DNA of 64,000 nucleotides, taken from Psammoneis japonica. Lineage: Eukaryota. The translations under genes and the position numbers were made by a program. Under the pieces are notes generated by a model. That model ran no database searches, was not told the DNA's origin, and was given only the letters and a program-made list of their open reading frames with translations. Below are positions 14,901 through 64,000 of this stretch, piece by piece (the stretch's first letter is position 1; each line of letters starts with the position of its first letter). Where the stretch lies: positions 124,001 to 188,000 of the forward strand of contig QPGO01000013.1 in NCBI GenBank assembly GCA_008632985.1. The letters run 5' to 3'.

Positions 14901-16561
14901 TCTTTGGTGAGCTGTGGATGTCCCTCATTGTGGTCATTTTTTGGTGGCAGTGAAAATGTGGTGCAACCGCAGCACTTGAGGCCCAACTTGCACTGTTGCA
15001 TTGTTTCAGTTGGAGAGCAGCGCTCCTCACTTAAAAAAATCCACACACACAAAAGGAGATCAAAAGAAGATGCAAATCAAACTTCTTGCTCAAGAACACA
15101 TGCAGCTCATCATGATCTCAGTGCACAATGTTGGGGCAAACTGCTTTTTGTGCAGCTGGTGTTGGCATGGCCACTCATCATTGTGGGTGCTGCTTTGAGC
15201 TGTGTCATTGCAGCATTTGTGTGGCAGGCAGAGAAATTGAAAAAGTCCTGCTCTGGTGTCACAAGAGTGCAACATCATCTTCAAAAAATCTTGCTGGTGC
15301 CTTTTTGTCTCAGCATGCTTTTTGCACTCAATTCCAGGCCCTTGCAAGGTTCTTTTTGTTGGAGGACAAGAGAAAGCAAAGAAGCAGCAACATGTTGGCA
15401 TTGGAGCACAATGCACAAAGCTGCACTTCCCATTTTACCTTCCATTTTTGAGTGTGGCACATTCTTCTTTTTTGCCAGCAGCCAACTCTTGCTGGGCTGT
15501 CTTCTTGACATGAAATGCCCCCCAGATTGCACAGTCAAAAAATGTCAGATTCTGTGCAGCAGGCAGACCCAACCTGCTCCTGCTCAAGATGCTTCTCAAC
15601 CAGATTGTGTGGCACACATCTGGGCAAAAGAGCTTCTGGCACAGAAAGGCATTTTTTTTTGCAGCTGAGGGGCGGGGTGCCACAAATGTCTGTGCCCTCT
15701 TGTCATGCAATGCATCATGCATCAGAGGCAGCAATGCAGTGGTTTCCACTTTCCTTTGTAAAATTTTGAGTGTGCATTGTTGAAATTGTCAACAAGCAGA
15801 ACTTGAAAAATGCCAGCAAAAATGCTTGACAAAATGAAGCTGTTTTTTGCATTTTATCTGATGTCTCATTGACTTTTCTTGCACAAGCTTCAATCAAATG
15901 CATGCAATGTTTAACTCAATTGGGATCAAAATCCATTTTTTGTTGTGCATGGTTTGGTTTCCTTTTGATCGCAATCAATTTGAACTTGGTTTTAACTTTG
16001 TCCTCCTCACTCACATGTGTGTGTGTCTTTGCACGTGTGCAGTCTGCAGCACTTCACGCACGCACATGACCCACCTTCATTTTTCTTCACTTTTGCACAG
16101 CCCGTTGGTCCACGGGTTTTCAGCACATGTTTTGCATGCGCAATTTTCCACACATTTCACAACAGCACACCCTCTCCCCAAAGTTTGAAAAACGAGAGCG
16201 TGTGCTGTTGTGATTCACGTGGATCCTGCGTGTGGTCACAAATCTGCAAATCAACAACCGGCCATGGCGGTGAAAGACTTTGCCCCATTGGCCGACGACA
16301 GCAGCTCAACGCGTGGTGATGCCTGCCATCCTTCTGGTTGGTCAAGATGGGGTTTTATTCGGGCACAGCTTGAATTTTGTGATTGCGAGTGTGCTGTCAC
16401 AAATCTGCCGCATCCAGAATGCTGAGCTGCTGGCGTGTTGTTGTGTGTTGTGTGCACGCACGTCACAAACTTGCTTTTCTGCAGCGTTGTTGTGATCGCG
16501 TGTGCGAGAGTTTTGCATCCAGAATCATCACAAGTTGCCATGAATTGCACTGTCCAAACAA

Positions 16562-16831
16562 GGCATGCACAAAAAGAGGTTCGTTGTTTTTTGACACATT
16601 CGCTGGCAACACACCCGTCTTCTCCAATTTCTGTGTCCAGACCCAGAAAGACTGCAGGCGGTGCTTGTTCCTGCAGCTCCAGAACCACACACATGAAAAG
16701 TTCTTTGCCGCATGTGACACTCTTCAAAAAAGGCATGCACAAAAAGAGCTTCATTTGTTTTTGATGTGTTCACTTGCATCACATCCATCTTCTCCAATTT
16801 CTGTGTCCAGATCCAGAAAGACTGCAGAGGC
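16562..16831. repeat. Degenerate direct duplication (~100-bp unit, ~170-bp period)
   Basis: GGCATGCACAAAAAGAG...TCTTCTCCAATTTCTGTGTCCAGA.CCAGAAAGACTGCAG at ~16562 and ~16732. Confidence 0.85.
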
Positions 16832-18281
16832 AGAGAGTGGGGAGACAACCCATTGGAGGTTGCCTGAGTTGTTGGGCTCATTTTGAAGGCTTCCCAAGTC
16901 TCTCCGCTGTGGTTGGTTCATCTTTGTTGTGCTCTCACAACGTTTTCTACACTGTTTGACAATGAACAAGGTGGCTGCCAGCACTGGCAGTGGCTCTTCA
17001 AGAAAGAGAACTGCAGCAGCTGCTGCAAACTCGCCTGTTCCAGAATCGGCGGCGCCGGATGCACCGGCAAGTCCATATTGCTGTTCCTGTTGGTGGTGTC
17101 AGTTCATCCACATTGCACTCTCACAACGCATTCTGCATTTTTTTGGCAACGAACAAGGTGGCTGCAAGCAGCGGCACTCAAAGAAAGTGAGCTGCAACTG
17201 CTGCAGACTCTGGGGTGCTGTCTCCGTCGGCGTCATTTAATTTGAGTGTAAACAACAAAGTGGAATGTTCATGGTGCAATGCAAATGATTTTAATTTGCA
17301 GGTTTTGCAGGGATAGAGGGTGGGCACTCTCACAGGGAAAACGTGCCCCTGTTTCATGGTGAAACATTTTTTCTCATGGGGAGGGGGGTCTGATCCCACA
17401 GCACAAAAATGTTGATCTGTCACAGCTGGCATGTCATTGCCAGCCACACAACTAATGAGGTTTGAAACCACAAAAAAATTGTCTGTGAAAGGAACAAAAA
17501 TCACAATGAAAAGATGTGTGATGATCACCACATTGCGCGCTCTGATGTGCCGCCCTGTTGCGCAATGTGTGCTGCTCAAACACACCAGCCAAGTGGCGCC
17601 CCCAACTTGCCGGCAGCTGGCTGTTGCTGCTGCACCCTGCAAATTGTCTTGCTGGCAAAAACAATGTGTTGAAGCCACAGAGAAAGCCCTCCGGGGCACA
17701 CTCTCTCTTTTCATGAGATTTGGCCACATGCAAAACTGAGTTTGTGGCTGTTTTGGGAGTGACAGAGAGAAGCACCCTGGTTTGGACCTGATTGCTGTGG
17801 AAACAATGAAAGGGCTGTTGCCCAAGCTTGTGAGTCAGGGCTGGGAGAAAAGCGGAGGAGTGTTTTGCCAAATGGGTGCTTTGCTCGCAGAGCTCCACTG
17901 TTGGAAGTGTGGAGGAAGAAAGAAAAGCAGGAAAAGCACAGCATCTACAACTTCAGAGCCCCCAGGCATGCACGCAGCAGAGATGACGGAGTTTAGAAAC
18001 AAGGGCGGCAACGCACAGTCGTGTCGCACAACGGACGTGTATTGCCCTATATTCTTTTCATGAGGGAATTTGATCATTTCCAGTCAAACAGGTTAAATTT
18101 TTCATAAACGTCAACATTGCCGAATATGTTTTGATTGGATTATTACAGAATTAGCGATTTTGAAAAGAATCGGCGCGGGCTTTTTCCTGGAAGCGGACCA
18201 CAACATACTACACTGACTTGCTTCTGTGGGAGGAGGTGTGTTGGTGTTGTGCCGTGATGCTAGAGAGCATAATAAAGAAGA

Positions 18282-20899: not shown

Positions 20900-21895
20900 G
20901 CAGAAGGAGGCACAGAGGCAGCTGCAGTGACAGCGGAGTAGAGCGGGCACAGAATGCAGGACGCAGGGCATTTGGCAGAGGGAGTGGGGGGTGAAGGGGC
21001 GGGGAGAGAGGAAGCAAGTCGGAGGGCATGCATGGAGAGGTGAAGAGTGAAAAGCAACAATGCAGGTGTTGCAGGTAAGGTGGGAGCTCCAGAAGCATCA
21101 AGAAAAGGAATGGAGAGGAAGGCCAGCAAGCGGAGACAGCAGCAAAGGCAGGGAGACTTGCACACCATCAGAGGGAGCGTTGGCAAGAGTGGAGGTGATG
21201 ACTTGCTGCTGATGTTCATGACAAAGATGGTGGGCTGGCAGACCAGGAAGAGCAGCTGACTTGACTGGAGTGATCAGGGAGGAGGCAGAAAGAGCAGAAG
21301 CGGAGGCAAGAACCGGAGCGCAACGGCGGAAAATCGTGTGGAGGCACAGAGTCGAGCGGGGGTTGTGCCAGGAGGACAAAGACAGGCAAAAGCAGCAAGG
21401 AAGGGCAACAGTGACACCTGACAGGAGCTGAGTGCCTTGAGTTGCAAAGCAGAAAGAGCAAAGAAGAGAGACCATGAACAATGGAATGGCGGCAGCCGTT
21501 GGATCTTGGAGGCCAAAGCCGCCAAGCGAAGCAGGAAGAAGGAAGGCAACGGCGAGAGAATGATCAGGAAGAGGAGCAGCATGGGAAGCAGCACAGCCAA
21601 GAAAGCAATGAATGGTGCTGAGAAGAGAGTCTTGAAAGGAGGAGGTCCAAAGAAAGGGATCAGGAGGGTTGTCGGGATCAAAGTTGTGGTGGAAATCAGC
21701 GCCAAGAAGGTGGGCAGAGGAAGGGGGGTGAGGCAGTGCTTGAAAAGTTGACCTTGAGTTTGCTTGTCATGAATGTGGGTGAGAAGCATGCTGACTTTAT
21801 GGGAGAGAGTGGAAGAGGTGGTAGAGAGGAAGGAATTGGCAAAGTCTTGGGAGCCAAGAGGCTGACCGAGGAAGCGGACACCGGAGGTGAGCTCG
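20900..21895 (-). mobile_element. Truncated CRE/SLACS-like non-LTR retrotransposon, RT C-terminal/thumb region
   Basis: LTSGVRFLGQPLGSQDFANSFL (~21815-21890), QTQGQLFKHC, PASLGGFGLQD (~21500-21535), LPPLLSPLAGLPL; broken by frameshifts. Confidence 0.65.
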
Positions 21896-22452
21896 AGACT
21901 GTAGGAAGGATCAGCGTTCCGTTGAAGTCTCAGCGAGCGATGCTGTATGTAGATTTGTACGTGAAATGTTCGTAAAAAACCTTTTATTTTATATACTTTA
22001 TATAGGTATCCAACATTTTATTTTATATATATGGTATGATACCTAAACATTGAATATGATCATTTCCTATCAAAAATGAATGAATATCCAAAATGAGTAC
22101 TTTCCTCAACATGTGCTTCGTTAGCTCTTTCCACCTGGCAGAAGCGACACATCATCGCGATTGCGGTGTCGGCGAGCCGAAGGGGACAATATCCAAGTTC
22201 AAAGTGTGTTGCGTTAACGGGACCTTATGCGTTTTGGGGGATTAGGTCTAGCTTAGCTTGCCAGCTTCTTGTCGGTGCTTCAAATAGAGTCAGAAGTTTC
22301 GAAGAAGTTTCTCTTGAAATTTGTTTCGGAAGACTTTCAAAGCTACTTCTCCAACTTCTCTTCAGCTCGCCCATCAAATTATTTTTTTCAGCGGCACATA
22401 GCTGGGTAACAAGCCCCATAGTTCCTGTTCTTTTTCATATTTCACAATCAAA

Positions 22453-23799
22453 ATGAGATTGAAATGTCAGAATCAAGCTTGGGGCTTGTCTACATGTTTT
22501 CTCAGTCTGTTATTGACGTCCCTCCTGATACCGGCTTCTCTGTGCTTTGTAATACCTTCTGCAACAAGACAAACTCGTTTCGCTACACCATTGTATGAGA
22601 GCCGACCCTATGATGGACTACGAGCCGAGGCAGGTCCACCTTGCGTCATCAAGGTGCTGGGAGTTGGTGGAGGTGGTGGGAATGCGGTAAACCGAATGAT
22701 TCAAACAAGCATTGAGGGAGTTTCGTTTTGGGGTATCAACACGGACGCCCAAGCACTCGCCAAGAGTTTGGCCCCCAACATTTTAAACATTGGTCGGGCC
22801 CTGACGCGAGGTTTGGGAGCCGGTGGGGATCCTGCCGTTGGAGAAATGGCTGCGCTGGAGAACATTGATGAGTTGAGAAGGATATGTGAGGGTGCCAATA
22901 TGGTCTTCATCACGGCAGGCATGGGCGGAGGAACCGGCAGCGGTGCTGCGCCAGTCGTGGCTGAGATTGCCAAAAAGGACTGTGGGTGTCTTACGGTGGG
23001 CGTGGTTACGAAACCATTTGCCTTTGAGGGAAGGAAACGAATGAGACAAGCTGAAAAAGCCATTGAAGAACTGCGAAAGCATGTTGACACGTTGATTGTG
23101 ATATCGAATGACAAGTTGCTTCGTATTGTGCCTGAGAATACACCCGTCACGGATGCATTTCTGGTTGCAGATGATATCTTGAGACAAGGTGTTGTTGGAA
23201 TATCAGAAATTATCTTAAAGACAGGTATTGTCAATGTGGATTTTGCCGATATCCGTTCCGTGATGAAGGATGCCGGCACTGCTCTCATGGGCATTGGTAC
23301 CGGGGTCGGAAAGTCGAGGGCAGCCGACGCAGCGGTCGCTGCCATTTCTAGTCCTCTGTTGGACTTTCCCATTCAAAAGGCACAACGCATTGTGTTCAAC
23401 ATTGTCGGTGGCGAGAGCATGGGTCTGAGTGAAATCAACGAGGCGTCTGAAGTGATTCACGAGAATGCCGACGACAATGCCAACATTATATTTGGTGCCC
23501 TCGTAGACCCCAAGATGGATGAAGAGATGAGTATAACTGTCTTGGCTTGTGACTTTAAGGACGAGGAGAGTCTACTGAAGGGTGGTGGCGAGCGAAATGC
23601 AAACTTCTACAAAGATCGTCGTCAAATGACAAAGAGCCCGTTAGGACCAGATGCGTCCCTCGAGGAGACAAGGATTGCCATTACAAGAGGATTCAAGATG
23701 CCGGTTGATCCTGAGGAGAGAAGCGCCATGCAAGAATCGCGAGATACAAGTGGCTTTAGCTTTCGGCGGTTCTTCAAGAAAGTTTTTGGAGGCTCGTAG
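22453..23799 (+). CDS. ftsZ: Plastid division protein FtsZ with bipartite presequence
   Basis: IKVLGVGGGGGNAV, GLGAGG, tubulin signature GGGTGSG, PFAFEG, NVDFAD; signal peptide ending SLC-F. Confidence 0.97.
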   Translation: MRLKCQNQAWGLSTCFLSLLLTSLLIPASLCFVIPSATRQTRFATPLYESRPYDGLRAEAGPPCVIKVLGVGGGGGNAVNRMIQTSIEGVSFWGINTDAQALAKSLAPNILNIGRALTRGLGAGGDPAVGEMAALENIDELRRICEGANMVFITAGMGGGTGSGAAPVVAEIAKKDCGCLTVGVVTKPFAFEGRKRMRQAEKAIEELRKHVDTLIVISNDKLLRIVPENTPVTDAFLVADDILRQGVVGISEIILKTGIVNVDFADIRSVMKDAGTALMGIGTGVGKSRAADAAVAAISSPLLDFPIQKAQRIVFNIVGGESMGLSEINEASEVIHENADDNANIIFGALVDPKMDEEMSITVLACDFKDEESLLKGGGERNANFYKDRRQMTKSPLGPDASLEETRIAITRGFKMPVDPEERSAMQESRDTSGFSFRRFFKKVFGGS

Positions 23800-31624: not shown

Positions 31625-33184
31625 CTAGATCATCAAACATACAATCAGTGACACCAGCAGGAGCAATTGGTTGCATATTCGGTCGACCTGAAAGGGACTA
31701 TTTGCCGACGAACCGCTTGGAGGCAAGGTTGACTCAACAGATCCACTTGGGGGCAAATTCGAAGCTGCCGACGAACCGCTTGGCGGTAAAGTCAGCTCAA
31801 CAGATCTACTTGGCGGCAAAGTAGGATCCAAAGTCGGACTGACCGAACCGCGTGGTGGTAACATGGGATCAACATTTAGGTATGCAGTCCAGAAATCTGT
31901 ATCTGAGTGAACAGCCAGTAGCTGCGCAGGAGCGCTTCCACTAACAAACTCCGGAGAGCCGACGCGACCTTCAAACAAGACCAAGTCTTCCTTGTTGTCG
32001 TAAAGGAAAAACTGAAAGCCGTGGTCTGCCAAGAACAAGATGGGTACATCAACGGGATCAATGGGAGACGCACTCGTTAGGGATACTCCACCCACTGTTA
32101 CAGCTGCAGCAATTGTACCAACTTCATTTACTTCAATCAATGTCTTCTGAACAATCAAGCTCAACACTTGACAACTTTCGTCACGGAAAATACCACAGAA
32201 ACCACCACCGCCACTTGTCTCAAACGGAGCCATTAGCCCAACTCCCTGCTGGAGAGCTTTCTCGAGGTTCTCCTTATATTTTGACTCGAATCGAAACCGG
32301 GGTAGCGCCAGAGCCACACGTTTTGGTTTGAGGGAGGGCATCGCATCCAAGATACTTTCAGACGACACGGCATCCAAGCCGTCATCGGTAGGCAGCACCA
32401 CCACCATGGAGAGGAAGCCTACCGCATAATTCAATTGAACAATCTGATACCCAGGAATGGCGTCATGAGAATATGGAAAAACCTCTACCTTGTGCATAAA
32501 GTTGACAGGATTTGGTAGCTCTTCGGTTCTTGAAGGAGAAGTGAAAAACTTGTCTGTATTCGTTAAGAGTTCCACAAAAGGAGACTTCCAGTTCGCCTTC
32601 AAGTAGATGGAATTGAGAGCCAAAAGGACAAATGGAGGAAAGAGTGGACCATTATCCACTATCGAATCAATCAATCCGCGTGTTGAAGCATTGACCCAGT
32701 CATTCACTTTTTTCCCAGCGTCAGGTGACGTAAAGTCGGTTTCTTGTAGGAACTCACCAACAATCGCCTCGTATTCTTGAGCAAGTTCATCCCCAATATT
32801 CATCCATACACTGTTGGCGATTTCCAAAATCGGAGCTCGGAGATTACACTGGTCGTTCCCACCAGATCCAACACATCGCCCATCGTATGCCGTCGTCAGT
32901 CGCGAAACTGTATCGTTCCAATGGAGCGCAGAAGATCCATTATTGCAGAGCGCCATAGCTGTGCACAAATCCTCTTGTGTTCTGGATGTGCCACCCGGGT
33001 GTAAGAGATCAAGCATTAAAGATACGCCCCAAGAGGAGGAACACTCGTTATCGTTTTCATAAAGCTCGGCTGTGAGTGAATCCGCGAAACGACTGTGCCC
33101 CTCCCTCGAAACTTCTCCTGCTGTAAATGACTGTCTCGCAAAAATTGATAGTATAAAGATAAATAAGTGGTGCTTCGATGCCAT
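31625..33184 (-). CDS. Serpin (copy 2, intact) with signal peptide, LPPSGS repeats and hydrophobic C-terminus
   Basis: VNDWVNASTRGLI, NSIYLKANW, LALPRF, hinge EVNEVGTIAAAVT, FLADHGFQFFL, VLFEGRV. Confidence 0.93.
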   Translation of the reverse strand: MASKHHLFIFILSIFARQSFTAGEVSREGHSRFADSLTAELYENDNECSSSWGVSLMLDLLHPGGTSRTQEDLCTAMALCNNGSSALHWNDTVSRLTTAYDGRCVGSGGNDQCNLRAPILEIANSVWMNIGDELAQEYEAIVGEFLQETDFTSPDAGKKVNDWVNASTRGLIDSIVDNGPLFPPFVLLALNSIYLKANWKSPFVELLTNTDKFFTSPSRTEELPNPVNFMHKVEVFPYSHDAIPGYQIVQLNYAVGFLSMVVVLPTDDGLDAVSSESILDAMPSLKPKRVALALPRFRFESKYKENLEKALQQGVGLMAPFETSGGGGFCGIFRDESCQVLSLIVQKTLIEVNEVGTIAAAVTVGGVSLTSASPIDPVDVPILFLADHGFQFFLYDNKEDLVLFEGRVGSPEFVSGSAPAQLLAVHSDTDFWTAYLNVDPMLPPRGSVSPTLDPTLPPSRSVELTLPPSGSSAASNLPPSGSVESTLPPSGSSANSPFQVDRICNQLLLLVSLIVCLMI

Positions 33185-33674
33185 GGTGTTCTGCTGTGAT
33201 GTGTGTTATACGTGTTGCTGCGGTCTATTCCCGGTGTTCTCGTTGTGTGTGTCCATGGTCAAAATGATGGTTGTGTCGGGTCGTGAGTCGTGATATGGCA
33301 AAAAATAAGAACCCAGGACGCAGCGGAACCCTAACCCTAACGATGTCTGTTTCCACTGCTTCCGCTCTCGCAATTTCTCGACTACCGGTACACTCTCTCT
33401 AGAGAGTAGAGTTACCGGTAGTAGCTCTCTTGCTAGCTACTTGCTAGAAACTGGCCTTTCTCTAGATGTGGGATTGTTGCTACTTGCTACAGTGTGGTCC
33501 TGATGAGCGCTAAATCCATAGAATCGTCTCACTGCGCGCCTTCTCTGTGCATTTTGAAACTAAGTGTGCTCAACAGTGCCCGCTATCTTTTCTCTTTTGC
33601 GTGCAACAAAGCTAATAGCAAAAGCGATGAAAACTACAGCACCTTCAAGCATGTGTATATCACCGTTCAAGCAC

Positions 33675-35133
33675 CTAGGTCCAAATCATCAACCATGCAA
33701 CACTTGCGACCTGCAGCAACGTAACGCACATTCGGTCGAACTCCAAAGCCTTTGATAAAGAACCACTTGGAGGCAAAGTTGGATCGACCGAACCGCGTGG
33801 TGGTAACGTTGGGTCGACAAAGAAGTTTGCAGTCCAGAAATCTGGATCCGAATGAATAGCCTGCAGCTGCGCAGGAGCGCTTCCCTCTATCATCTCTGGT
33901 GAGCCGACACGACCTTCAAACAAGACCAAGTCTTCATTGTCGTCGTAGAGGAAGAACTGAAAGCCGTGATCTGCCATGAACAACACGGGTACATCAATAG
34001 GAGCCGATTCGACAAGTCCACCTAATGTTACAGCCGCAGCAATTGTACCGACTTCATTCACTTCAATCAATGTCTTCTGAACAATCAAGTCCAACCACTG
34101 ACAGCTTCCGTCCCTGAAAATGCCACAGAATCCACCACCACCACTTGTCTCGAACGGAGCTAAGAGCCCAATAGTCTGAAGAGCTTCCTCCAGGGTCTCC
34201 TTGTACTTGGACTCGAATCGAAATCGCGGCAGCGCCAACGCGACACGTTTTGATTGAAGGGAAGGCATCCCTTCTCGTACACTTGCAGATGTCAAGGCAT
34301 CCAAGCCGTCATCTGTTGGCAGCACCACCACCATGGAGAGGGAACTTGCTGCATACTTCAATTGAACAATCTGATATCCAGGAATGGCGTCATGAGAGTA
34401 GGGAAAGTAATCTACCATATGCATAAAGTTGACAGGATTTGGTAGCTCTTCGGTTCTTGAAGGAGACGTGAAGAACGTGTCTGTATTCGTAAAGCGCTCC
34501 TGAAAAGGAGACTGCCAGTTTGCCTTCAAGTAAATCGAATTGAGCGCTAAAAGGACAAAAGGAGGAAAGAGAGGACCATCATCCACTATCGAATCAATCA
34601 ATCCGCGTGTCGATGCGTTGACCCAGTTATTAACCACCGCCCCAGCGTTGGGTGAAGTAAAGTCTGTTTCTTGAAGGAATTCACCCACTATCGCCTCGTA
34701 TTCAGGGCAAGCTGATCACCTATGGCCATCCAAACGCTGTTTGCAATCTCCAAAGTAGGAGCTTGGCGAAAGCACTTATCGTTTTCGTCAGAATCAACAC
34801 ATCGCCCATCGTACGCGGTAGTCAGTCGCGAAACGGTATCTTTCCAATGGAGTGTAGAAGACCCATTATTTGGTGCCAGGGGGTTACAGAGTGACATGAC
34901 ACTGCACATTTCCTCTCTTGTAATTGCTGTTCCACCGGGGTGCAAGAGATCGAACATTAAAGATACACCCCAAGAAGAGGAACACTCGTTTTCTTTCTCA
35001 TAAAGCTCGTCTGTGAGCGAATCCGCGAAACGACTGTGCCCCTCCCTTGCAACTTCTCCCGTTGCACATGGTATTTTCGCAACAATAATGGATAGTATGA
35101 ATACAAACCCTTCAACTGGTTCTTCGATAACAT
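33675..35133 (-). CDS. Serpin (copy 3) with apparent frameshifts at ~34690 and ~35080 (consensus errors or young pseudogene)
   Basis: ORF pieces collinear with copy 2; hinge EVNEVGTIAAAVT; hydrophobic C-terminus. Confidence 0.8.
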
Positions 35134-51557: not shown

Positions 51558-53299
51558 TACGGGTTCGTCGGAAGAGAAGGTATCTTTGTCTGATCAGCGT
51601 CCGCTTCGACCTTTTTCATATGATAAGTCCCCTACAGTTTCTCGTTGATAGGTATGTAAACCGTACACCGATTTCGTCACCACTGCGTGCTGAGCTAGAC
51701 TTACGATACAACGATGCAAGATCACTGATCACTGATGCGTAACACCCCTCAACAAAAAGAGATGATGACAATGAATGGGATGAAACTCGCGTCTCTTGTG
51801 GCGTCGTCAGGAAAGAGGCATAGCGGGTCGAATGAAGTCACTTCACCGCAGTGACGACGCGAAGAAAAAAGGCCTTTCTTTGTAGAACCTGGTACGAATT
51901 CTACGTGGAGCTGCGGAAAATTACGTTCGTGACAACGAAACGGGTGATTGGGTGGACAGCAGAAACCCGGAAAGGTGAACCGTAAGTACGCATAATTGAC
52001 TTGATTAAGTGATAGTTTTACTATCGTTAAAAGTGAATGACCGACTTTGCTTCACTTAAGACACGAATGGATGAACGTTATTTCTCCAGCGGTTCCAACT
52101 GTTCCAACTGTTCCAAACTGTTCCTTTAGCGATTTCACGATTAGATTTCACAAAATGCTTTCTCCGGAAATGTAGCTCGACAAAAGACATATTCTTTATA
52201 CGCGCTCTTCCCGTAAACGTGACACGTACGAATGAGGTGAAATGGACAAATTCGTTTTGAGCGCATTCATCATCTTACAAACCATTCAGTTCAACTTTGA
52301 TCGTCGCGAACCGATGACCACCACCCATCGTACGCATTGAAGTGCGACACTGCGACATCATGCCGCCACAGGGAAGCTTCACGTCACGTCACGCCTCCAC
52401 GCTGCGACACCGGTACTTAAACGCTGTAGAAAGCAAGACGTGGCATTTCGTTTTCGTCAGCATGTCGTCACACGCCACACGTCATCATTGCTTGGTACCT
52501 TCTTTCACTCCCGCCCCACTTCACGGCCGGGCAGCATGGATGCACGCAATTTGGTGACAGCAGCTCACATTCTCACAGCAATTTGAGCACATGCTTCTCA
52601 GGAGACCCAGCTGTCCTGCTGCCCTTCTGGCCTGTTCCAGCCCCAGGCAACCGCAACCCATCAAGCGAGATTTTTTGTGCGCAGCTTTTGGCATCGACAA
52701 TTTTGTCTCTGTCCAGCAGAGCTTGGCTTTTGTGGCAAACATCAAATGCCTTGATGATGTGATGCATTTGTGACAACAACGCATGTCTCCAACAACCAAG
52801 GTGCACATTTCATCACAGGAAGAGCACAGTGTCAGTTGGCGTTTCACGTTGTTTTGCAAACGCGTTGACCAGTGCTGACTCCTGCACGCGTGTGTGCCAC
52901 CCACATCAAAAACACACAATGTCAGCCACAGTGCAGCACACTGCTGTTGCCGCTCTGCCACCCCCTTTTCACCATTGCAGTTGCATGGAACCATCTGCTC
53001 TTTTCATTTGAAAGTTGCGCTGTTGTTGTCACAATGCAGCTGCGGCTCTGTGCAACCTCTTTTGTTGTTGCAGATGGCACCACTTCTTTTTGCACTCTCT
53101 TGTGTGGAGTTCAGCAAGTTGATTTTGTGTGTTGTGGTTCACACAAGACACTGCACATGTGCTTTTTCTGGTTGCCTCCAATGTCTTGTGTTTTGTTTGC
53201 TTTGCAGAGTTTCTGCAAAACTCGCATTTTTGTCCCAACGATTTTCAAATGACAGGCGCCACCATCTTGAACTTGTTTTTGTTTGTTTGCACTGTGACA

Positions 53300-54530
53300 C
53301 TTGCTGTTTGGTGCTGCCAAGCATCTGGAACTGCCTTGGAGGCTGTTTCTGTGCATCTGCATCACTTTTGCGGCACAGCTGATGTTGCCCCCCTCTCTGG
53401 AGTGCATTTGTTGCACAAACAGAAGTTCAAAAGCAGTGCAATCAAAATGGACAAGTCAGCCAAAGCAGCCACCAAGAAACATCTGGGGCTGGCAAATTCT
53501 TCCATTGGCGGCAGTGGCATTGCCCCAAGCAAACAATTCTTCAAGCCAGCCAAAGATGTCTTTTTGCATTGAGAGCTTCATTGACTCGTTGGAGAGGCAC
53601 ATTGCCAACCGGCGAGTTGGCACCATCAACCTCTCCAAACTTTGGTTGATCCCAAGATGTGCCCACAAGGTCTTGTGGAATTGAGCCTCTTGACCATCGA
53701 AGATCATGAGACCCAGAAGACCAGCCCTCTCTCTCTTTCAGGTTCTCATCACAGGAATGGTGTTGATGGGTTCAACATTGCCAAAGCATGAGTCCTGTTC
53801 CATGACACTGTTGTTGGTTGGTTTCATCAAGAATTTGCCAACAAGAATCAACTGCCAACAAAAGCATTTCTCAAGGAGAAGCATGACAACATGTTCATTT
53901 GTTGCGCAAGTGGAAGTGCAGCTTGCTGTTTGGCGCTGTCGAGCATCTGGACCTGCCTTGGAGGCTGCCTCTGTTCATCTGCATCACTTTCATGGCAGCT
54001 GATGTTGGCCCCCTCTCTGGAGTGCATTTAAACCACAAACAGAAGTTTGAAAGCAATGCAATCAAAATGGACAAGTTGGCCAAAGCAGCCAGTGAGAAAT
54101 GTCTGGGGCTGGCAGATTCTTCCGTTTGGTGGCAGTGCCCCTCAAGCAAACATTTCTTCAAGCCAGTTGAAGGTGTTCTTTTGCATTGAGAGTTTCTCGT
54201 TGACTCACTGGGAGCACATTGACCACCGGCAGGTTGCTCCAAAACTTGGTGCCATGAGCCTCTCCAAACTTAAGTTGACCCCAAGACGTGCCCACAAGGT
54301 CTTGTGGAGTTGAGCCTCTTGACCATGGAAGATCACAAGACCCAGAAGACCAGCCCTCTCTTTCATGTTCTTCATCATCACAGGAATGGCGTTGACGGGT
54401 TCAACAGTGCCAAAGCATGAGCCCTGTTCTATGACATTGTTGTCAATTGGTTTTGTCAAGAATTTGACAGCAAGATTTGACCGTGAATGCCCGCAAAAGC
54501 CTTTCTTGAGGAGAAGCGTGACAACATGTT
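53300..54530. repeat. Tandem duplication, ~620-bp unit, of a formerly coding segment
   Basis: CTTGCTGTTTGG..CCCTCTCTGGAGTGCATTT..GCCCACAAGGTCTTGTGGA..GACAACATGTT at ~53300 and ~53922. Confidence 0.9.
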
Positions 54531-55053
54531 GATGTTGGTTGCATTCCATCAGGAACATTGAGAAACACATTGCTGCTGTTTAGATGTGCTAGGTCAAGAA
54601 AGGAGTTGGTGTGCTTGTTGATTGCATCTGAGTGAACTGCTCTGGGTGATGAGAGAGGTGACAAGAGAAAGACCATCTCACACCACAGCATTTGTTTTTT
54701 TCTGTCAGATGTTGCAAGTTCACTTCCCCAATGGCCCAAGAAAAAAGGGCTGTTTCAAGGAGCCGCTGGCTCACCTTGCTGATTGGTGCAAGGCAGCTTG
54801 CCAACTGCAATGGCGCTTGTTTTGCAGAAGAATGCATCGCCATCATTGCTTGGCTCATGCCAAGATGGCAAAGGAAATTCTTGAGGGTGATGAGAATGAA
54901 ATGCAAGAGGCACATGAGGGCACCAAAAGCTTGCAACTGTGAGATGGAAACAAAGAGGAGGAGGATCAAGGGCAAGAGGCATGGATGTCTCAGCTGAGGA
55001 AGAGGAGGAAGACACAGAAGAGGAAGAGCAGGAGCAGGGGGGGGGGGGGGCGT

Positions 55054-55575
55054 GAAGAATGCAGAAGACTTGGCACTTGGAGACATGAAGGCAGAGAAGG
55101 AGAGGGCAGGAGACAGGCATTGCAAATGCTGGATGGAGCTCATGAAAGCCACAACTGGAGTGAAAAATGATGACGATCTCATTGGCCTTTGCGGCTTCAA
55201 GCCAAAATCAGGAGCGCCAGGAGCACCTGTGTTTCATTGGTTCTTGAGCAAAGGCAAGTGCCACCAACAAGAAAGCGCGATGACAGAGCAAACGTGTGAC
55301 AAAGTTCATGGAGCAGGGGAAGCTGCTGAAGAATGCAGAAGACTTGGCACTTGGAGACATGAAGGCAGAGAAGGAGAGGGCAGGAGACAGGAGACAGGCA
55401 TTGCAAGTGCCAGATGGAGCTCATGAAAGCCACAACTGGAGTGAAAAAGATGACAATCTCATTGGCCTTTGCAGCTTCAAGCCAAAACCAGGAGCACCAG
55501 GAGCACCTGTGTTTCATTGGCTCTTGAGCAAAGACAAGTGCCACCAACAAGAAAGCGTGATGACAGAGCAAATGT
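55054..55575. repeat. Tandem duplication, ~275-bp unit
   Basis: GAAGAATGCAGAAGACTTGGCACTTGGAGACATGAAGGC...CCACCAACAAGAAAGCG at 55054 and 55328. Confidence 0.9.
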
Positions 55576-56159
55576 GCAACAATGCTTGAGTCATGTTGCA
55601 GGTTAAAAAATTTGTTTTGATTGACCCCAGTTCATGAAGCAGGAGAGAAGCTGCTGCAGCCAGGCAATTCTGCAGGAGCTGTTCCTCACTTGTTTGGCTG
55701 CATTGCTGAAGAGAATGAGGGCATTGTGTTGTGTGAAGAATGGTTTGTCCAAAGGGCCAATGCATTGAATGGCCATCCCATGGAAACATGTGTGGGCCTC
55801 ATCAAATGTGCTGAACACAAACCCAACATTGCCTGGAAATTAAATCAAAGATGATGCATCAACAAGATTGAGCACAAGGTGCATGTGATTTGCAGCAGTG
55901 CACCGCAGATTGCAAGACTCAAGAGATTGAGTCAGGAGGTGATGCAAAAGCTTCCACATCTTGTGCGGGGTGCTGATTTTGTTGGTTGCACCCAGCAGGG
56001 CAACCGTCCAATGTGTGTGACACAAGATTGAGCTGAGTGCAATTTCCAGGTGTGGTTTCCAGAAGTTTGGAAAGATTTGAAAGATTGGAAGCCAGGGGAG
56101 GGTTTCTGCATCTTGCTGGAAGGAAACGTGTTGATGCCATTGGATGCCAACTTGCTGAC

Positions 56160-56620
56160 AAGCAGCCTGCCTGTGAAATTCTTGCAAGGACACAACAACA
56201 CTTGCTTGTTTTGTCCCTGACCTGTGTTCTTCATTGTGCTTTGTGCTGGTGACCTGGAAATGAGAGATTGCATTCCATCTCATGTTGAAACATCTGCCAA
56301 CCATGCCAACACCAATGACAATTGCATGTTGTTTGAAAAGCACATGCTGAGCCACTGTTTGAAGGGAAAGTTCCCATCAACAAACTCAAACATGAAGTTT
56401 TGCTGCAGTTTGGATCAAACCATTTTCTTGGAAGCAGGTGGTGAATTTGATGTGTGACAACCTGCAATGATGGCTGCACAACTTTGTGCCATCTGGTGAA
56501 CAACCACTGCATTGCCTTGCACCATGGATCTTTGACTCCAATCACAGTTTTGCATTGCCAGCAAAGGAGGACATCAAGTGCTTGAAACGGTGTCTTGGAA
56601 ACAAGGAACATGATGTGAAA
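56160..56620 (+). pseudogene. Decayed ORF with a papain/C39-like peptidase pattern
   Basis: VKFLQGHNNTCL (~56173-56208), NHCIAL (~56502), WIFDSN (~56525): Q..C / H / D order typical of papain-fold proteases; family uncertain. Confidence 0.4.
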
Positions 56621-56999
56621 CATGTGGCAAAAAAGGTCTGAAAACAAGTGGCCATGGTGTGCCAGTTTGAACTTCCAAGGGTGGTGGCACAGCAGGCAAA
56701 TGGCAAAAGGAAAGATCTTGTGTTGGGTGGTTCATCTGGTTGCATGATGCAAAGTGACAATCACAGTGTTTGTTCATTTTCCCACTGCCATTTCATTCCT
56801 CAGACTCATCACTTTCACTGTCCCCTCCTGCACTCTCCTCCTCCTCCTTGCAGTCCACTGCTGTGCTGTTCTCCTCCTCATCATTGTCACTCTCTTCCTC
56901 CCAACTCATCAGCTTCGCTGTTGTCGTCCTCCTCCAAACATTCCTCAAAATGATTCATTGACTCATGCTGGTGAATCGCACCAAGAATGGCTTTGTGCT

Positions 57000-59480
57000 C
57001 ATCCTCACTCAAATTGCGTGGAATGAGAAGTGAAGCCTCATTCCTGTTGCATGTCCTTGGCAGCTGCAGAGAGGCTGATGGTTCATTCAGCTCGGTGTTT
57101 GCAGCTGCACTTTGCTTGAGCAACACTCTTGTCTGACATTCCTCAGTGTCAGCAGGAGTGCACCATCCTCTGGCCCATGGAGCACAGTTTGCAAGCATTC
57201 CCTTGCAAACCCACTCACTGGCCTCAACAGGTGTGGGTGGATCAAACTTGTTCCACACCACATCTTCGCATGCTTTGTGGGGCAGTTCATCCCATTGCAG
57301 CAGATGGAAGCTCTCATCAGATTCACAAGACAAAATGTGGCACAGCTGTTCATGACAATTTCCTTTGCCATTTCCTCAGTCAATTTGTCCAACACAGGTT
57401 TGTGGGCCAACTGCATCTTGTCAGCATCACTCTGAGTTGTTGGAAGCACCTGACAAACTTGCCAATCATTCAGTCCCTCAAATTGGGCCACAGTTTGCAA
57501 GCTTGGTTGCCACCTGCATGTCGAGGCCACTCAGCTGGCTTGACATTGTTCACCCAAGGTCAATTCAGCTGATCCAGGCAGCCTTCACAAGGGCAAGGAA
57601 TTGGTTGAATGGCAACCCAAACAATGGGAAAAAGAGAATCAAATCAAAAATGGCACATGGCGCCAATGCCACAATGGTGCATGCAAACTTGCACCAATCC
57701 AGTCAACTTGACTTCAGCTGAAGAGCCAAGAACTTCATCAGCTTCTTGCAGAAAATGTGCCCTTTCTTTCAACTTTTGAAGGGACTCCCTCAAAGCATGT
57801 TTCCTGTCACCAACTTTGCCACACTGGCACATTTTTTCATTTTGAGAAATTTGAAACATTCCTGAGTGCAGCTGTGCTCTGCTGCAACATTGTTGTCATC
57901 CATGGCCAGAGCATCAGCTCCAATTTTGCTGTCCTCATCATTGACTCCTGCAACAGTTGCAGACTGCATTGCTCAACACACAAGTGATTCAACACAGGCT
58001 CCAATTCCATCGACCTCTCCTTTGTCATGTCCAGGTCAGGGGACATCTTTGGAAGTGAGATCATCGAAGGCGGTCTGATCACCAGTGCATTTGGGGACTT
58101 TCCCAGTGCGGTTTGCACACAAAAGAAAACATGCAGGATCTGTCCAGAGGTCCCAAATGCCCAACTGCACTGACTGACAGACTGTTTTGGTGCAAATTCT
58201 GTGCAACTTTCTTTGACAGTCTCACTTCCAAAGACGTCCCCCAAGGTGCTCCAATGGCGCGGTCCAATGCAACGTTGCATTTGTGGGCAAACACTGACAA
58301 CAAGTGCAGTGCCGAAGGGCATCAATGCTGTTTGGCACAACCATTGCTCTGTGCAATCCCAAATTGCAAGCCACACCTGACACAGTCCATGGTTCTTTAA
58401 CTGTGCGACAAAGTTTTCCAAGTGAGTGTGGGTGGTGGTGGCGGCATCTTGCTCAGAAGAGTCAAAGAGATGTGCCTGATGTGTTTTTTCAGCCTCATTG
58501 TCAACCATCACATTGCAAACTCTTCTTTCAATGGACAATGTTTTGTTGTTGCCACAATGATCCCCATGAATTTGGTTGTTAAACTTGGCTGCTGGAATGC
58601 CAGAGCAGTCATGAAATGTGAAAATGCTGTTGGGCATTGACTCAAATGCTTTGCAACACATTTCCATGCAATGATTTTTCCCAAGAATGGCCACCTGGGG
58701 AAGGTGGCAATGCAGCTTCTTTGCACTTGGAATGCAGCGTTCTTTTGCAAAAAGTCCAACTGTTTTGTGGAACCTTGTCAACAAGATCTTTCATTTGACC
58801 TTTGCATCCTTGTTCCCACCTGGATCTGCCTCACAAACAGGACATGCTTCCATGAACATGTCATGCTTGAGGCACCTTTTTGCAGTCAAATGCCATTGAA
58901 ACAAAACTTGGAGCACACTGGAACTTTCACTCTGTTCCAACAATGGAGTTGGGTGGGATGCCATGCTTGCATTCACCCAAAACATGTTTCCAATGAGGGT
59001 GGTCATGACCATTGACATTGCCACAAATGATGGTTGCAGCTGCATCTCAAGCTTCAGGATGAAGGTGATTGGAGTTGGAGCCAAACGTTTCCTCTTGATG
59101 ATGGCACATTGTCCTCTCCAATTTGCGTGCAGTGCTGTCATGGTTCTCTTGTTCACTTTTTTCCCCTTCATCTTCAACAAGAATCATGTCTCTTGAGTTG
59201 GGATGCTGTGCCATGTCTGGGATGATTTGACAACCAGCGCACATCAGCTTTGCTGATCTCAGGGGAAACTTTGTGAGGGTGCTGATGGGGCTGTGCACTG
59301 AAGACCACATGACATTGCCTTTGATCACAATCAAAGCCACTCTGGCCGTCTTTCCCTGCCTCGTCATTTGGTGACAAACAGCCCCTGGATTCAGGCTGCT
59401 GGGTGCATTGGCGCAGTCCTTGGACAACAACCCAGGCTCATCAGCAGGTTTTTCCAGAGAACTGGAGACTCCAGCCGCCA
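57000..59480 (-). mobile_element. Fossil DDE/D-type transposase gene (possibly Sola-like), interrupted by a MITE; ends approximate
   Basis: FHDCS..AAKFNNQIHGDHCG..TLSIE, DSSEQDAATT, SNGCAKQH*C..ALHLLS...LDRAIGAP|GHDKGEVDGIGA, IPCPCEGC, FEGLNDW. Confidence 0.65.
58037..58243. mobile_element. 207-bp MITE with ~22-bp TIRs and 4-bp TSD AGGT
   Basis: GGGGACATCTTTGGAAGTGAGA ... TCTCACTTCCAAAGACGTCCCC; AGGT at 58033-58036 and 58244-58247; removing it restores GAP-GHxKG. Confidence 0.88.
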
Positions 59481-59894
59481 CTGAATGGACAAAAAGATTG
59501 TCGTCAAAGCAGCACTGACCATTGCTTTTGTCATTGGCATGTGGCTGCCTGCATTTTGCCCAGCTGCTGGGTTGTTTGCAAGGCAGCAGACTTTGCTTTT
59601 GGCAACGTCAAGTCACAAGTCTCAACATGAGCCAACTCAGGAAAATGCAAAGTGCGCACAAAGGCAGTGGCTTGTTGCTCTTGAATGGCAGTGCAAGACA
59701 AAACTCTTTGTCTTGTTTCAGCCGCTGCATGACAAAGTGCTTGTTGGGGATTTTCGTGGGTTGCATCAAAGGCGCGAGGGGATCAACAATGGGGCACTCT
59801 CAAAATTGAAGGAGCTTGTTGTGCTGAGTGCAAAAATGGGCCAGCAATGGGTTGCGCACCTCTGTTGACACCTGCTGGAGCTGGGGCAGGCCTT

Positions 59895-60110
59895 CTGTTG
59901 GTCATGTGGCCACAATTGACCCAGGGCAGGACAAAAAGCCAAGCGTGCTTTGTGGCCAGACAGCCACCAAGAGATGTTCAGTGTGGCTGGCTCCTTTTGC
60001 GCATCGAGCCGCACACTCTGTTGGTCGTGTGGCTGCATTGACCCAAGGCAGGATGAGTGGTCAAGTGTGCTTTGTGGCCAGGTGGTTGCCAAGAGATTTT
60101 CAGGGCAGCT
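59895..60110. repeat. Degenerate tandem duplication (~125-bp period)
   Basis: CTGTTGGTC.TGTGGC..ATTGACCCA.GGCAGGA..GTGCTTTGTGGCCAG..CCAAGAGAT occurs twice. Confidence 0.75.
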
Positions 60111-60185
60111 TGCTCCTCTTGCACATCAAGCTGCACACAGTGGCAAGCAGCTGCTTTTTCACAAAGAACAACAAATTCTCTTGTG

Positions 60186-60189
60186 CACG

Positions 60190-60231
<42 letters not shown>

Positions 60232-60333
60232 ACCACACACACCACACACACCCCCCACACCACACACCACACCACACACCACCCCCCCCACCACACACCC
60301 ACACCACACACACCACCACACCACACCACACAC
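60186..60333 (+). repeat. (CA)n microsatellite grading into CACCA repeats
   Basis: Read directly from the sequence. Confidence 0.95.
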
Positions 60334-60556
60334 TGTTTGCTCCAACAAGAGCCAACAAGAGCTTGCAGAAGATGCCATCTTGTCTGCAAAAAAGGAGAGA
60401 TGTGTGGAGTGCATGGGCAGACATGCGCATCACCACTCTGATGCAGCACAGCCCTGGTTCAATCCCGTGCCTTCTTTGCAGAAGCTTGGGCTTTCAAACA
60501 CTGCCTTTTTGACAGAGGCCTTGGATGCAGACATGAGCAAGTGCCAGCGCCATGAT

Positions 60557-60816
60557 GGCCTGTTCCAGCTCCAGGTGCTCCGTGCGGGCTCGATTCCCAT
60601 CATTTGGAAATTTGTGAATTTGGCGCAATTGACTTTTTCCAAATCCGTTTTTTGCCAAATCGAAGGGCAAGTGTGCACTTCACATGCATTTTCGGGTGTG
60701 CACTCACCTTTCGATTTTCGAAACGATCAAAATTGAAGGAGTCAATTGCACCAAACTGCGCAGAAAATCGGCCTCTTGCGTGATGAAAAGCAGAGCACCT
60801 GGAGCTGGAACAGGCC
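60557..60816. mobile_element. 260-bp MITE with perfect 24-bp TIRs and 4-bp TSD TGAT
   Basis: GGCCTGTTCCAGCTCCAGGTGCTC / GAGCACCTGGAGCTGGAACAGGCC; TGAT at 60553-60556 and 60817-60820; inner inverted pair TTTGGCGCAATTGACT/AGTCAATTGCACCAAA. Confidence 0.88.
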
Positions 60817-63800
60817 TGATGATGAGACACCCTCCAGCCAGCACACGCAAGCCAGCACATGCAAGAAAAGACAGTTGCGTGGTTTTTGCCACATGTGGTC
60901 TCTGAAATTTGACCAAACTTTTGCCACAAAAAGTGCGGCAGCAAGGGTGACCCATCATTGCCCAAGAGGGTCTTGTGGCCCTTCTTCTCAGATCAGCTCA
61001 GGCATCCTCAGCAGGAGGACAGCGCTGGTCTGTCCCTGTGCAGGCACCAAACAGCACTGCTTGGGCCAGATTCTGCCCACAGAGATGGAACATCAGCTTG
61101 AAATTCCACCAAGGCAGATGCTGTCAACACAGCACCCTCCCAAGATGACCAAAACTCTGCCAAGTGTGGCTGCAATGCCAAACTCCACTCAAATCATGCA
61201 CGCAGCAAGTTGGCACATTTCTGCACAAAAACGCCACACCCTGCATTCCTGTGACTGCATTTTGATGCCAACCAGAAACAAATTTCATGACCACATGTGG
61301 TCACCAGGTGCAGCTGCTTTTGTCACCCTGTTTTTTTTGTGCTTTTGCAACAACCACATGTCCACACAACATGATGACTGACAACAACGAGAATTTTGTC
61401 AACGACCTTGGATCTGACAAGTCTTTTGCAAGCCTGTCATTGCACTTGCGTTGATTGCTTTGTTGATTGATGTGCGCGGCACCAGCGTGGTTGTGCTTTG
61501 TGCAACATTGCCACCACTCTGACACTCCATTTTCCTTCTTGCCCTTTCAGACCTCCAGAAGAGTGGCGGTGTTGACACCAAAGCAGATTGTGAGCAGGAG
61601 ATCCATCAAAATGTTGGCAAGGTGCACAGAGCATGAGCAGAAGATCCATCAAAATGCTGGCAAGTTTGACTGTTTTGTGAGTTTTTGGGTGACACACGCG
61701 CTGTTTGCAAGTGGTTTTCTCAACAATGTTTTTGTTTTTGTGTCTGTCATTGGTGCGGCCACTGGCCTGGCAGCCTTTTGGGAAGGCGGACTGTGATGCT
61801 GTGTCTGCCATTTCATTTGTCCCAGCAAATGAGGTTGGCTCAGTGTCTGTTTGTCGCCAATTCTCCAGAGGATGCTGCTGTGCTCTGTGTGCTTGCAGTC
61901 TGTGCAAGTTCATCCCCAGCTGGCTTGCTGGTGTCATGACTGTGGCAAATCTTCACGTGCAATGCATGGCATGTGTGGTCAACCAGCCACAATGGGAGAA
62001 CAGGGAAAGCAAATTGACCTGATTTTAAACAAGCAGATCTGTTTCTGCTTGGCACCACAGTGCGCCATCTTTCCACTGCGTGGGCATCTTGGGCACGGCA
62101 ATTGTGCCAAGCTGCGCAGATGCACTCACACAAAGTGTCAAACTGGCAAGCCAATTTTGCCAAAAGGGAATCCTGCAAAGCTTCCTGTGCCACTCATTGC
62201 ACTTGCCCTGGCTGCTGTGGTGGCTGTGGTTTGCCTGGAAGTTCTCAACAAACTTCAAACTCATGATGCAAAACAGGCACCTGTGCTTGCACATTTTTGC
62301 AAACCAGATGATTCACTCCAAAGAGCAAGAACAAAACGCAAAACAGAAGGAAGAGTCATCATTGTGGCGTGCAGCAGGATCTGAATGGGTTCAATGTGCC
62401 AGGGGGTTCTCACACCCTTTTGGTTTTTTTGTGCTGTCACACTCAGCTGTGTCCCCACCCATCTTTTCTGGGACTTGTGTTGGAGTTCCAAGGCTTGCCA
62501 ACAGATGCACAGCAGTTGGCATTGCTGACCCCAACACAACCTTGCCACACCCTCCTTCAGCAGACCTTCAACAGCTTCTTTGACAGCAAGGCACCCTCCA
62601 GAGATTGTTTCTTCACCCTCATCCAGCCAGCTCATTTGCTGCAATCTGCCAAGGAACACCACAAGGCACACCTTTGGGTTCCTGTTGACCTCCTGGTCTG
62701 TTTCTTTTGACTCCTGTGTTGACTTCCCAGCCCTCACATCTGTGGATTCCCTTGACTTTCCAGCCCCCGTTCTGTGGATTCATCTTGACTTCTCAGCCCT
62801 CAAATGACTCTGCTCTTTTGAGCATTGTGCCACAATGACCAGCACACATTCTGTCTCACCATCTCCCAACTCACTGAATGGCTTGCAAACACATTGGCTT
62901 GTGTTGCTGGCTGTTGTCACCATGTCAACCAGGCACAGAAGATGGGAAGCATGCACAAAACCCGCGGCTCAACCCAAGGTTGCACAGCACCGCTGCTCCC
63001 CACAACTGCCCTTTCATTTGGTTGTCACTTGCAAAATTGTGCCTCAAGTGTTCCTTTTGCATGTTTCCAGGCTGGCCATTGTTGGTTTTCCATGGACACA
63101 CTGCCGCCATGCCCTCTCCATTTGTGCCTTGTCAAATGGCATGCTGGAGCACAGATCTTGGCACTGGGGTGCCACAAACAAATTTGCGCTGCCTCCCTTG
63201 GCTTCTTTTTCAAGCAAGGAAACTGGCTCCTGGACTTTTTAGTTTGTGCCTGTTCAACTGTGGCCTCATTTGCACACCAGGGCAAATTTCCAGAAACTCT
63301 CACGAAAACTGCTCTTCAGCAAAAGCACCTGGCACCTCAGATGCATCTCACCTGAAACCCCCAGAACAGCTCCAATGTCTGTCTCTTCTCTTTGTGTCTC
63401 TGAAGGAGACAGGGGTGCTCTGAGGAAACATTCTGGCAATGCTGGCATGCTGGAGGTGATGCCATGGTGGAGGCAGTTTGTGCAGGAAATTTGCCAAAAA
63501 ACTCCACACTTTCAAGAGGTGCTGTGGTGGAGCCAAACGTCACTCAATGACACAAAGTGCAAAATTGTGTGTTTTCAGGTGTGAAGATTTTGTCATGAGG
63601 TCATTTGGGGCTCATGGAGCTGCAACCAAAATGTTTTGTCTTTTTTCAAAATTCTTTTCAGGTGATGCTTGGCACGACTTGAAGACTGGTGCCACCAATT
63701 TTTTGTCAACTCAAACTTCTTTCCTCCCAACAACAACTGGCACTTCTCCATGGGCTCTGGTCACAGCTCATCAAAAGAAGCAAGAAGACTGCTCAACTGC

Positions 63801-64000
63801 AAGCAGAGAGAATGAAAGCAGGGCTCAGCTTGTCCCTGATGATGATGCCAGGGAGGAACTGGGTGCCACCGCTGTTGTTTTGAGGAGGGAATTCCTTCTG
63901 CAGACTCAGGCAAGAGCACCAGCATCCACAACCACCTCTTGGCTGTTTTGCAAAAGTGTGACATTGATGAAAATGAAAAGCTTGACAAGATGGAACAGGC

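Follow-up and report, generated by a model that had tools for sequence, protein, structure and literature searches.

The window analysed here is a stretch of 64,000 nucleotides of contig QPGO01000013.1 from Psammoneis japonica. The MITE occupies positions 60557–60816 (260 bp) and ends in two 24-bp TIRs that are 100% complementary, the left one (60557–60580, forward strand) being free of both TA and CG and the right one located at 60793–60816 (forward strand). TGAT is found as the TSD on either side (60553–60556 and 60817–60820, forward strand), and the element contains 13 CG and 0 TA. The perfect TIRs, the TGAT TSD and the CG and TA counts had been named in the original prediction and are confirmed; its description of the element as AT-rich was wrong, the GC content (48.5%) being like that of the window (47.7%), with only the 212-bp interior mildly AT-rich (44% GC). 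The CpG-poor flanks that it described are also found: the adjoining 500-bp segments have 5 and 6 CG (o/e 0.15 and 0.18), and each of them has 0 TA as well. The hairpin predicted for the MITE DNA (z −7.5) was considered as a mechanistic clue and discarded; it reflects the TIRs together with internal palindromes and has no bearing on mechanism. A long CA/CAC-rich microsatellite (60190–60333) lies 220 bp upstream of the MITE.

The MITE is embedded in a TA-erased, CpG-depleted block, which at 53001–64000 holds 11 TA in 11 kb (o/e 0.015) and has a CG o/e of 0.20. The TA-erased block starts at about 52.6 kb and extends about 4 kb past the end of the window. Set against the TA-normal parts of the window, a MITE with no TA would be rare (P about 8e-5); inside the block it is unremarkable (P about 0.7), whereas 13 CG are unexpected for this block (P about 2e-5). 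As zero TA is ordinary within the block, it is the CpG retention that carries information, given the evidence from the family that TA was ancestral (below). The rest of the window, where TA o/e is mostly 0.4–0.7 and CG o/e about 1, carries an FtsZ gene (22402–23799), two tandem serpin genes (31625–34715), and bZIP and WD40 genes. A second TA-erased, CpG-depleted block (12001–18000, TA o/e 0.03–0.13) lies amid these gene-bearing stretches, and there is a short TA dip at 21001–22000. A search of the genome for an unoccupied paralogue of this insertion site gave only weak matches of 70–130 bp. For the one window gene that was searched, those homologues that carry a name come from diatoms.

Searching the genome with the MITE gave 40 scored near-full-length matches among 311 candidates, and searching with the TIR pattern gave 194 matches, 100 of which were listed. 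The 121 loci fetched, a non-random sample, contain 87 different full-length copies, which occupy 72 insertion sites. At 64 of the 72 sites the TSD is 4 bp long and perfect, with no fixed sequence. Elements of 8.7–9.2 kb carry the same TIRs and a 4-bp TSD. The left 198 bp of this parent transposon correspond to 60557–60754 of the MITE (forward strand, 87% identical to parent copy L071) and its right ~60 bp, including the right TIR, to 60753–60816 (forward strand, 89% to L071). The element is short and non-coding, has TIRs and a TSD, exists in many uniform copies and shares its ends with a partner of autonomous type; it is, judged from its sequence, a non-autonomous internal-deletion derivative of an 8.7-kb Sola2-like DDE cut-and-paste transposon. 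The parent transposase has 62 homologues, and its conserved motifs match by eye, without statistical comparison, those of the Sola2 alignment in the available part of the source (PMC3627910, supplement S10). Common to both are the 4-bp TSD, the short TIRs and the transposase motif order D(F/Y)AE..EIQS.H..SD..(S/T)DG..QY..HGK..DG; unlike Sola2 as described there, the parent has a TSD that is not AT-rich, a 24–26-bp GGCC-ended TIR, a length of 8.7 kb with extra ORFs, and no Pfam match. The TSD base counts (C71, A69, T66, G50) show none of the AT-richness (AWWT) of amoebozoan Sola2, which may not be a family-wide feature. Neither the transposase nor the other ORFs of the parent had a Pfam match above the cut-off, and for these two reasons the name is kept at 'Sola2-like'. 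Long convergent ORFs, likewise without a Pfam match, lie opposite the parent transposase (L071:4498–8997, reverse strand). One MITE insertion rides inside a larger repeat that is present at least 13 times, for the most part on small contigs (L002–L006, L009, L010, L014, L016, L017, L019, L021 and L096).

The family was used to establish which dinucleotides are ancestral. At 11 sites of the MITE, TA is present in 2–33 of the 72 copies, and at 10 of the 11 both TG and CA occur in other copies. Sixteen CG sites are ancestral, and all 13 CG of the window copy are among them. The least mutated sibling, L007, keeps 7 TA and 16 CG and, outside TA and CG sites, departs from the family majority only at one subfamily marker. 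Between the window copy and L007 there are 12 differences, comprising 7/7 TA lost, 3/16 CG lost and 2 others (Fisher p=5e-4). The TA present in L007 have become CA at 60668, 60681, 60687, 60743 and 60752 and TG at 60674 and 60699; a further four sites at which few copies have TA (60615, 60621, 60630 and 60784) are all TG and may have been lost in the donor. Position 60705 (CA) is another likely ancestral TA, where TG and CA, with TA absent, are seen among copies. The lost CpGs are at 60583 (TG), 60749 (CA) and 60777 (TG), leaving 13 of the 16. Three to five of the TA losses of the window copy may have been inherited from a donor copy; in L007, four or five further TA are already TG or CA. The family founder had at least 7 TA, probably 11–12, and 16 CG. 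The two objections that the original prediction raised against itself, a family consensus free of TA and CpGs that are not ancestral, thus do not apply, with TA ancestral at 11 sites and 13 of 13 window-copy CpGs ancestral.

These data bear on the idea that the MITE was born TA-poor, such that the missing TA is a property of the master sequence or of selection and the CpG retention reflects youth only. A per-column majority of the family holds just 3 TA, 17 of the 72 copies have none and L007 is already TG or CA at five sites, all of which would suit that idea. However, TA occurs at 11 sites with both products at 10, L007 keeps 7 TA, the sites are unlinked, the halves of one TSD are mutated oppositely and Tyr codons of the parent are erased (both below). 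We give the idea next to no credence; L007 and the two-direction polymorphism already refute it.

The 59 copies of the main subfamily show 54 TA haplotypes, and none of 21 site pairs is linked. In copy L023, the TSD reads TGTC on the left and CATC on the right, so one TA has been mutated oppositely in the two halves, which places the change after insertion. Thirteen copies with one common insertion site differ at three TA sites (25/39 lost) and have lost 16 of 188 CG. The TA losses behave as independent, site-by-site events after copying, on either strand. That the insertion is recent, as had been proposed, holds in part. The family is young, with about 1% background change outside TA and CG, but the perfect TIRs and TSD that were taken as the mark of age are uninformative: with TA and CG both absent from them, they cannot register either process and are weak evidence of youth, and a perfect TIR pair is present in 23 of 72 copies. 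The window copy is moreover at the more-mutated end of the family (7/7 TA lost against a median of 5; 3 CG lost against a median of 2). It is a mid-stage snapshot in which TA is saturated and CpG about 19% decayed. An older relative of the parent in the same block (52629–59796, reverse strand; 68–81% identical to L071) has 9 TA (o/e 0.02) and 85 CG (o/e 0.21; core 0.10), and with both TA and CG gone it is a late stage of the same series.

The rates of the two losses were compared as ratios of −ln(fraction kept). In the main MITE subfamily (59 insertion sites), TA is kept at 105/409 and CG at 754/900, giving a ratio of 7.7 (4.8–13.5 on bootstrapping over copies and sites). Leaving out the most-eroded site gives 6.9, and the 28 copies that the TIR pattern by itself recovers, which are free of any bias from a TA-free search query, give 6.7; in the 13 insertion sites of an older subfamily, which were set apart, the ratio is 3.9. 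For the parent, a pile-up of 19 rows was reduced by two short divergent ones and the 12 youngest were used, with 191 strict TA sites retained and 89 dropped. Strict TA is kept at 436/2089 and CG at 2768/3931 or 2817/4494, so the ratio is 4.5 or 3.4 (bootstrap 2.9–3.9 for the latter). These strict-site figures replace an estimate of 1.4–3.6, which had included ambiguous sites and TA that may have arisen anew. The transposase was also polarised by outside homologues: at 10 conserved Tyr positions, 6 of 166 codons still read Tyr (90 are His and 67 Cys), and CGN-Arg is kept in 103 of 161 codons at 10 sites, or 53% if two sites fixed as CAT/CAG are included. Eighteen conserved Arg sites were considered in all; six are not CGN, the two fixed ones were left out and 10 were used. 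By arithmetic from the family counts, CpG loss is ~20–40 times non-CpG C-to-T change and TA loss more than 100 times other A:T transitions. Overall, TA is lost ~4–8 times faster than CG, although TA sites are near saturation and the ratio varies two-fold between data sets. The claim that TA loss outran CpG loss is borne out in 58 of the 59 main-subfamily copies, the exception having lost neither, and the process is fast, as predicted, at about 8 times CpG loss in the MITE (CI 5–14) and 3.4–4.5 times in the parent.

The TA loss has a clear context. Fitted rates are 1.28 for TAT and 1.19 for TAC as compared to 0.52 for both TAA and TAG; RTAY is kept at 21/386 sites and YTAR at 210/493. Within the window, YTAR accounts for 27 of the 38 TA that survive in the TA-poor blocks as against 293 of 1660 in the TA-normal parts. 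TG and CA products are about equal. Rates at TA are 0.5–1.3 per A, as compared to 0.4–2.7% at other A, and with this ~100-fold specificity the process seems much more selective than engineered TadA. The preference for a following pyrimidine extends beyond TA, with A-to-G change at 173/1256 non-TA sites before a pyrimidine and 75/1959 before a purine, whereas transversions are flat (27 vs 43); the same excess is seen among singletons (171 vs 105), and again in the MITE set (64/2395 vs 15/3507). The base preceding a non-TA A makes little difference (AA 1.6%, CA 1.2%, GA 1.3%). Among trinucleotides, AAA (8/380) is at baseline, and CAC (38/217) and GAC (13/117) are about as high as AAC (39/262). 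The WA signature of polymerase eta, with AA raised over CA and GA, is thus absent. Among TA sites, those no more than 4 bp from a CG have the lowest retention (0.10, as against 0.15–0.18).

A search of the genome for deaminases gave five matches, named by reading: one TadA-like, one ADAT2-like, two identical dCMP deaminases and one deaminase–dioxygenase fusion. In the last (L164:1381–2853, reverse strand), the deaminase domain shares one frame with what we take to be a 2-oxoglutarate dioxygenase domain. The TadA-like and ADAT2-like matches look like ordinary housekeeping deaminases, and their presence is no evidence of a role; the same applies to the 27 C5-methyltransferase matches (L166–L177 and others). 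Several of the latter are broken or clustered (C297, C10 and C28) and one has a parent element 4 kb away on C1, which suggests that some C5-methyltransferases may be transposon-borne.

Whether the two losses are coupled was assessed at several scales. Strands are not coordinated between neighbouring hits, either TA–TA or TA–CG (z −1.5 to 0.7), and whether a TA is kept does not depend on the retention of CG 2–200 bp away (z 1.4, −0.7 and 0.0). Per copy, TA and CG loss do correlate (rho 0.52 in the MITE and 0.59 in the long element), and both also track background change. In a repeat-biased set of 1451 overlapping 500-bp tiles, none of the 300 with TA o/e ≥0.3 had CG o/e <0.4, while 200 of the 894 with TA o/e <0.1 still had CG o/e ≥0.6. 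The per-copy correlation and the lack of any strongly CpG-poor, TA-normal tile fit shared targeting. How much a copy has lost shows no relation to the TA or CG level of its flanks (rho −0.09 and −0.17), but the flanks are already depleted in 64 of 72 cases. At the MITE copies L013, L018, L025, L050, L066, L079 and L117, which sit at domain edges, TA-normal DNA begins within 100–300 bp on one side. Boundaries of TA-erased domains are sharp, with a short halo at most.

A Gypsy family separates the two processes. Among the best 12 of 38 matches (coding copies, two sub-lineages), four keep 72–75% of TA and eight keep 2–17%, yet CG is kept at 49–80% in the TA-spared copies and 46–78% in the others (Mann–Whitney p=1.0). 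Copies that keep TA and lose CpG like the rest indicate that the two processes can be uncoupled. The MITE of L007 sits in a broken, TA-spared Gypsy element, whose siblings show the empty site and which has a stop codon where they read CGA/CGT; a location of L007 inside a gene was considered and rejected, the Gypsy lying in ~30 kb of repeat-rich, mostly TA-normal DNA. Loci L206, L159 and L205 (G000:C160:100001–129700) span ~30 kb in which nested and in part broken repeats have, for the most part, normal TA (o/e 0.3–0.9), and the Gypsy siblings L194 (on the contig of this repeat domain), L195 and L199 are spared from TA erasure too. Parent copy L144 keeps 41% of TA (others 8–18%) while its CG loss (45%) is ordinary, another sign that TA erasure varies from locus to locus. 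We read the data as a separate chemistry with a per-locus switch and overlapping targets. The earlier claim that the TpA process is mechanistically separate from CpG decay, which it took to be passive 5mC deamination, is supported by the A-to-G direction, the lack of strand or local coupling and the Gypsy uncoupling; full independence is less well supported, as the losses are correlated.

On the mechanism that we favour, copies of a young family would lose TA to TG or CA site by site, on either strand, through a targeted A-to-G (T-to-C) mutator that would act on repeat-rich domains and be switched on per locus. Most likely the A of 5'-TA would be deaminated, best in TAY, by a TadA/ADAT-like activity. 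CpG loss by 5mC deamination would run in parallel, more slowly and in the same domains, TA loss not being its by-product. We hold this account as a whole, from a Sola2-like parent to fast TA loss by such a mutator apart from 5mC, to be probable. Deamination of A would be our best guess within it; a lesion on T is equally compatible, A-to-G on one strand and T-to-C on the other being indistinguishable in sequence data. A repeat-specific modification, such as oxidised thymine or 6mA at TpA, might accordingly mispair or be deaminated, and the process would then be targeted and separate from 5mC but not a TadA-type reaction on plain A. The extreme dinucleotide specificity would suit a sequence-specific modifying enzyme and the locus-wise on/off pattern agrees with one, but the graded spill-over onto VAY and not VAR resembles the context profile of a deaminase, and we think such a lesion improbable.

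A different source for the TA changes would be cytosine methylation itself, if 5mC or T:G mismatches recruited error-prone, polymerase-eta-like patch repair that wrote A-to-G at nearby TA. The same domains are affected, the losses correlate per copy, TA retention dips next to CG and the genome has its 27 C5-methyltransferase matches; moreover, in the parts of the sources available, the young TEs of a model diatom are targets of methylation by DNMT5 (PMC9998398) and a 3' T also raises the mutability of polymerase-eta hotspots (PMC8749460). Yet TA and CG hits lack strand coordination and co-retention at 2–200 bp, there is no W preference outside TA, TA hits far exceed CG hits per site and some Gypsy copies have decayed CpG with TA kept. 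In Bigelowiella natans, 210 of 211 hits are A/T-to-G/C in the accessible part of the account by Mettrop et al. We regard this route as unlikely, marginally less so than a lesion on T or methylated A.

The reading of a targeted mutator has one close precedent. Mettrop et al. (bioRxiv 10.64898/2026.01.13.699255) describe, in the part of the preprint available, TpA-specific hypermutation of integrated NCLDV and virophage DNA in B. natans and propose an ADAT-type deaminase. As there, A:T-to-G:C transitions occur here almost only at TpA and on both strands (TpA to TpG or CpA), the TA-poor block is transposon-derived while gene-bearing parts have TA o/e 0.4–0.7, and some repeats are spared; restriction to selfish or foreign DNA, heterogeneous on/off behaviour and TpA-poor DDE and RT coding sequences are reported in that account too. 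The settings differ, Rhizaria in that case and a diatom-like genome in ours, where DNA transposons and MITEs are near saturation. Unlike in that account, as far as available, CpG decay runs alongside TA loss so that both can be timed, and the TAY preference and VAY spill-over are not found in its accessible text. Its rate was measured de novo (about 1000-fold, in mutation-accumulation lines), whereas ours is inferred from copies. TadA-derived adenine base editors are most efficient at TAY (PMC10879117, as far as available); they are engineered and Cas-guided and the natural process is far more TA-specific, with AAC/AAT raised here too, so the likeness is one of signature only. The literature searched yielded no report of TpA hypermutation from a diatom, only the B. 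natans preprint.

Fungal RIP, a premeiotic process whose targeting depends on pairing, changes C to T at CpA, makes TpA and leaves same-strand runs. The process described here resembles it in being a repeat-limited, strand-symmetric transition hypermutation that wrecks the coding capacity of transposons. It runs in the opposite direction, TpA being destroyed by A-to-G and falling to o/e 0.015 rather than rising, and same-strand runs are absent.

The MITE itself is ordinary; the mutator that it records is barely described, a natural repeat-directed A-to-G DNA mutator having been reported, in the literature searched, from one alga only. With the MITE family, this mutator gains an internal clock, a trinucleotide signature by which the class of enzyme can be narrowed down, and loci at which it is off while CpG decays; with these three, mechanism and targeting become testable. 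In such genomes, divergence that includes TA overstates the age of repeats, and TIRs free of TA and CG understate it. As a tentative proposal, to which we give rather less than even weight, a DNA adenine base editor of natural origin might serve diatoms as a genome defence. This would be a TadA/ADAT-type, TAY-preferring activity, applied locus by locus to transposon domains and independent of 5mC decay, that would erase most TA of a new insertion before ~1% background divergence has accrued.
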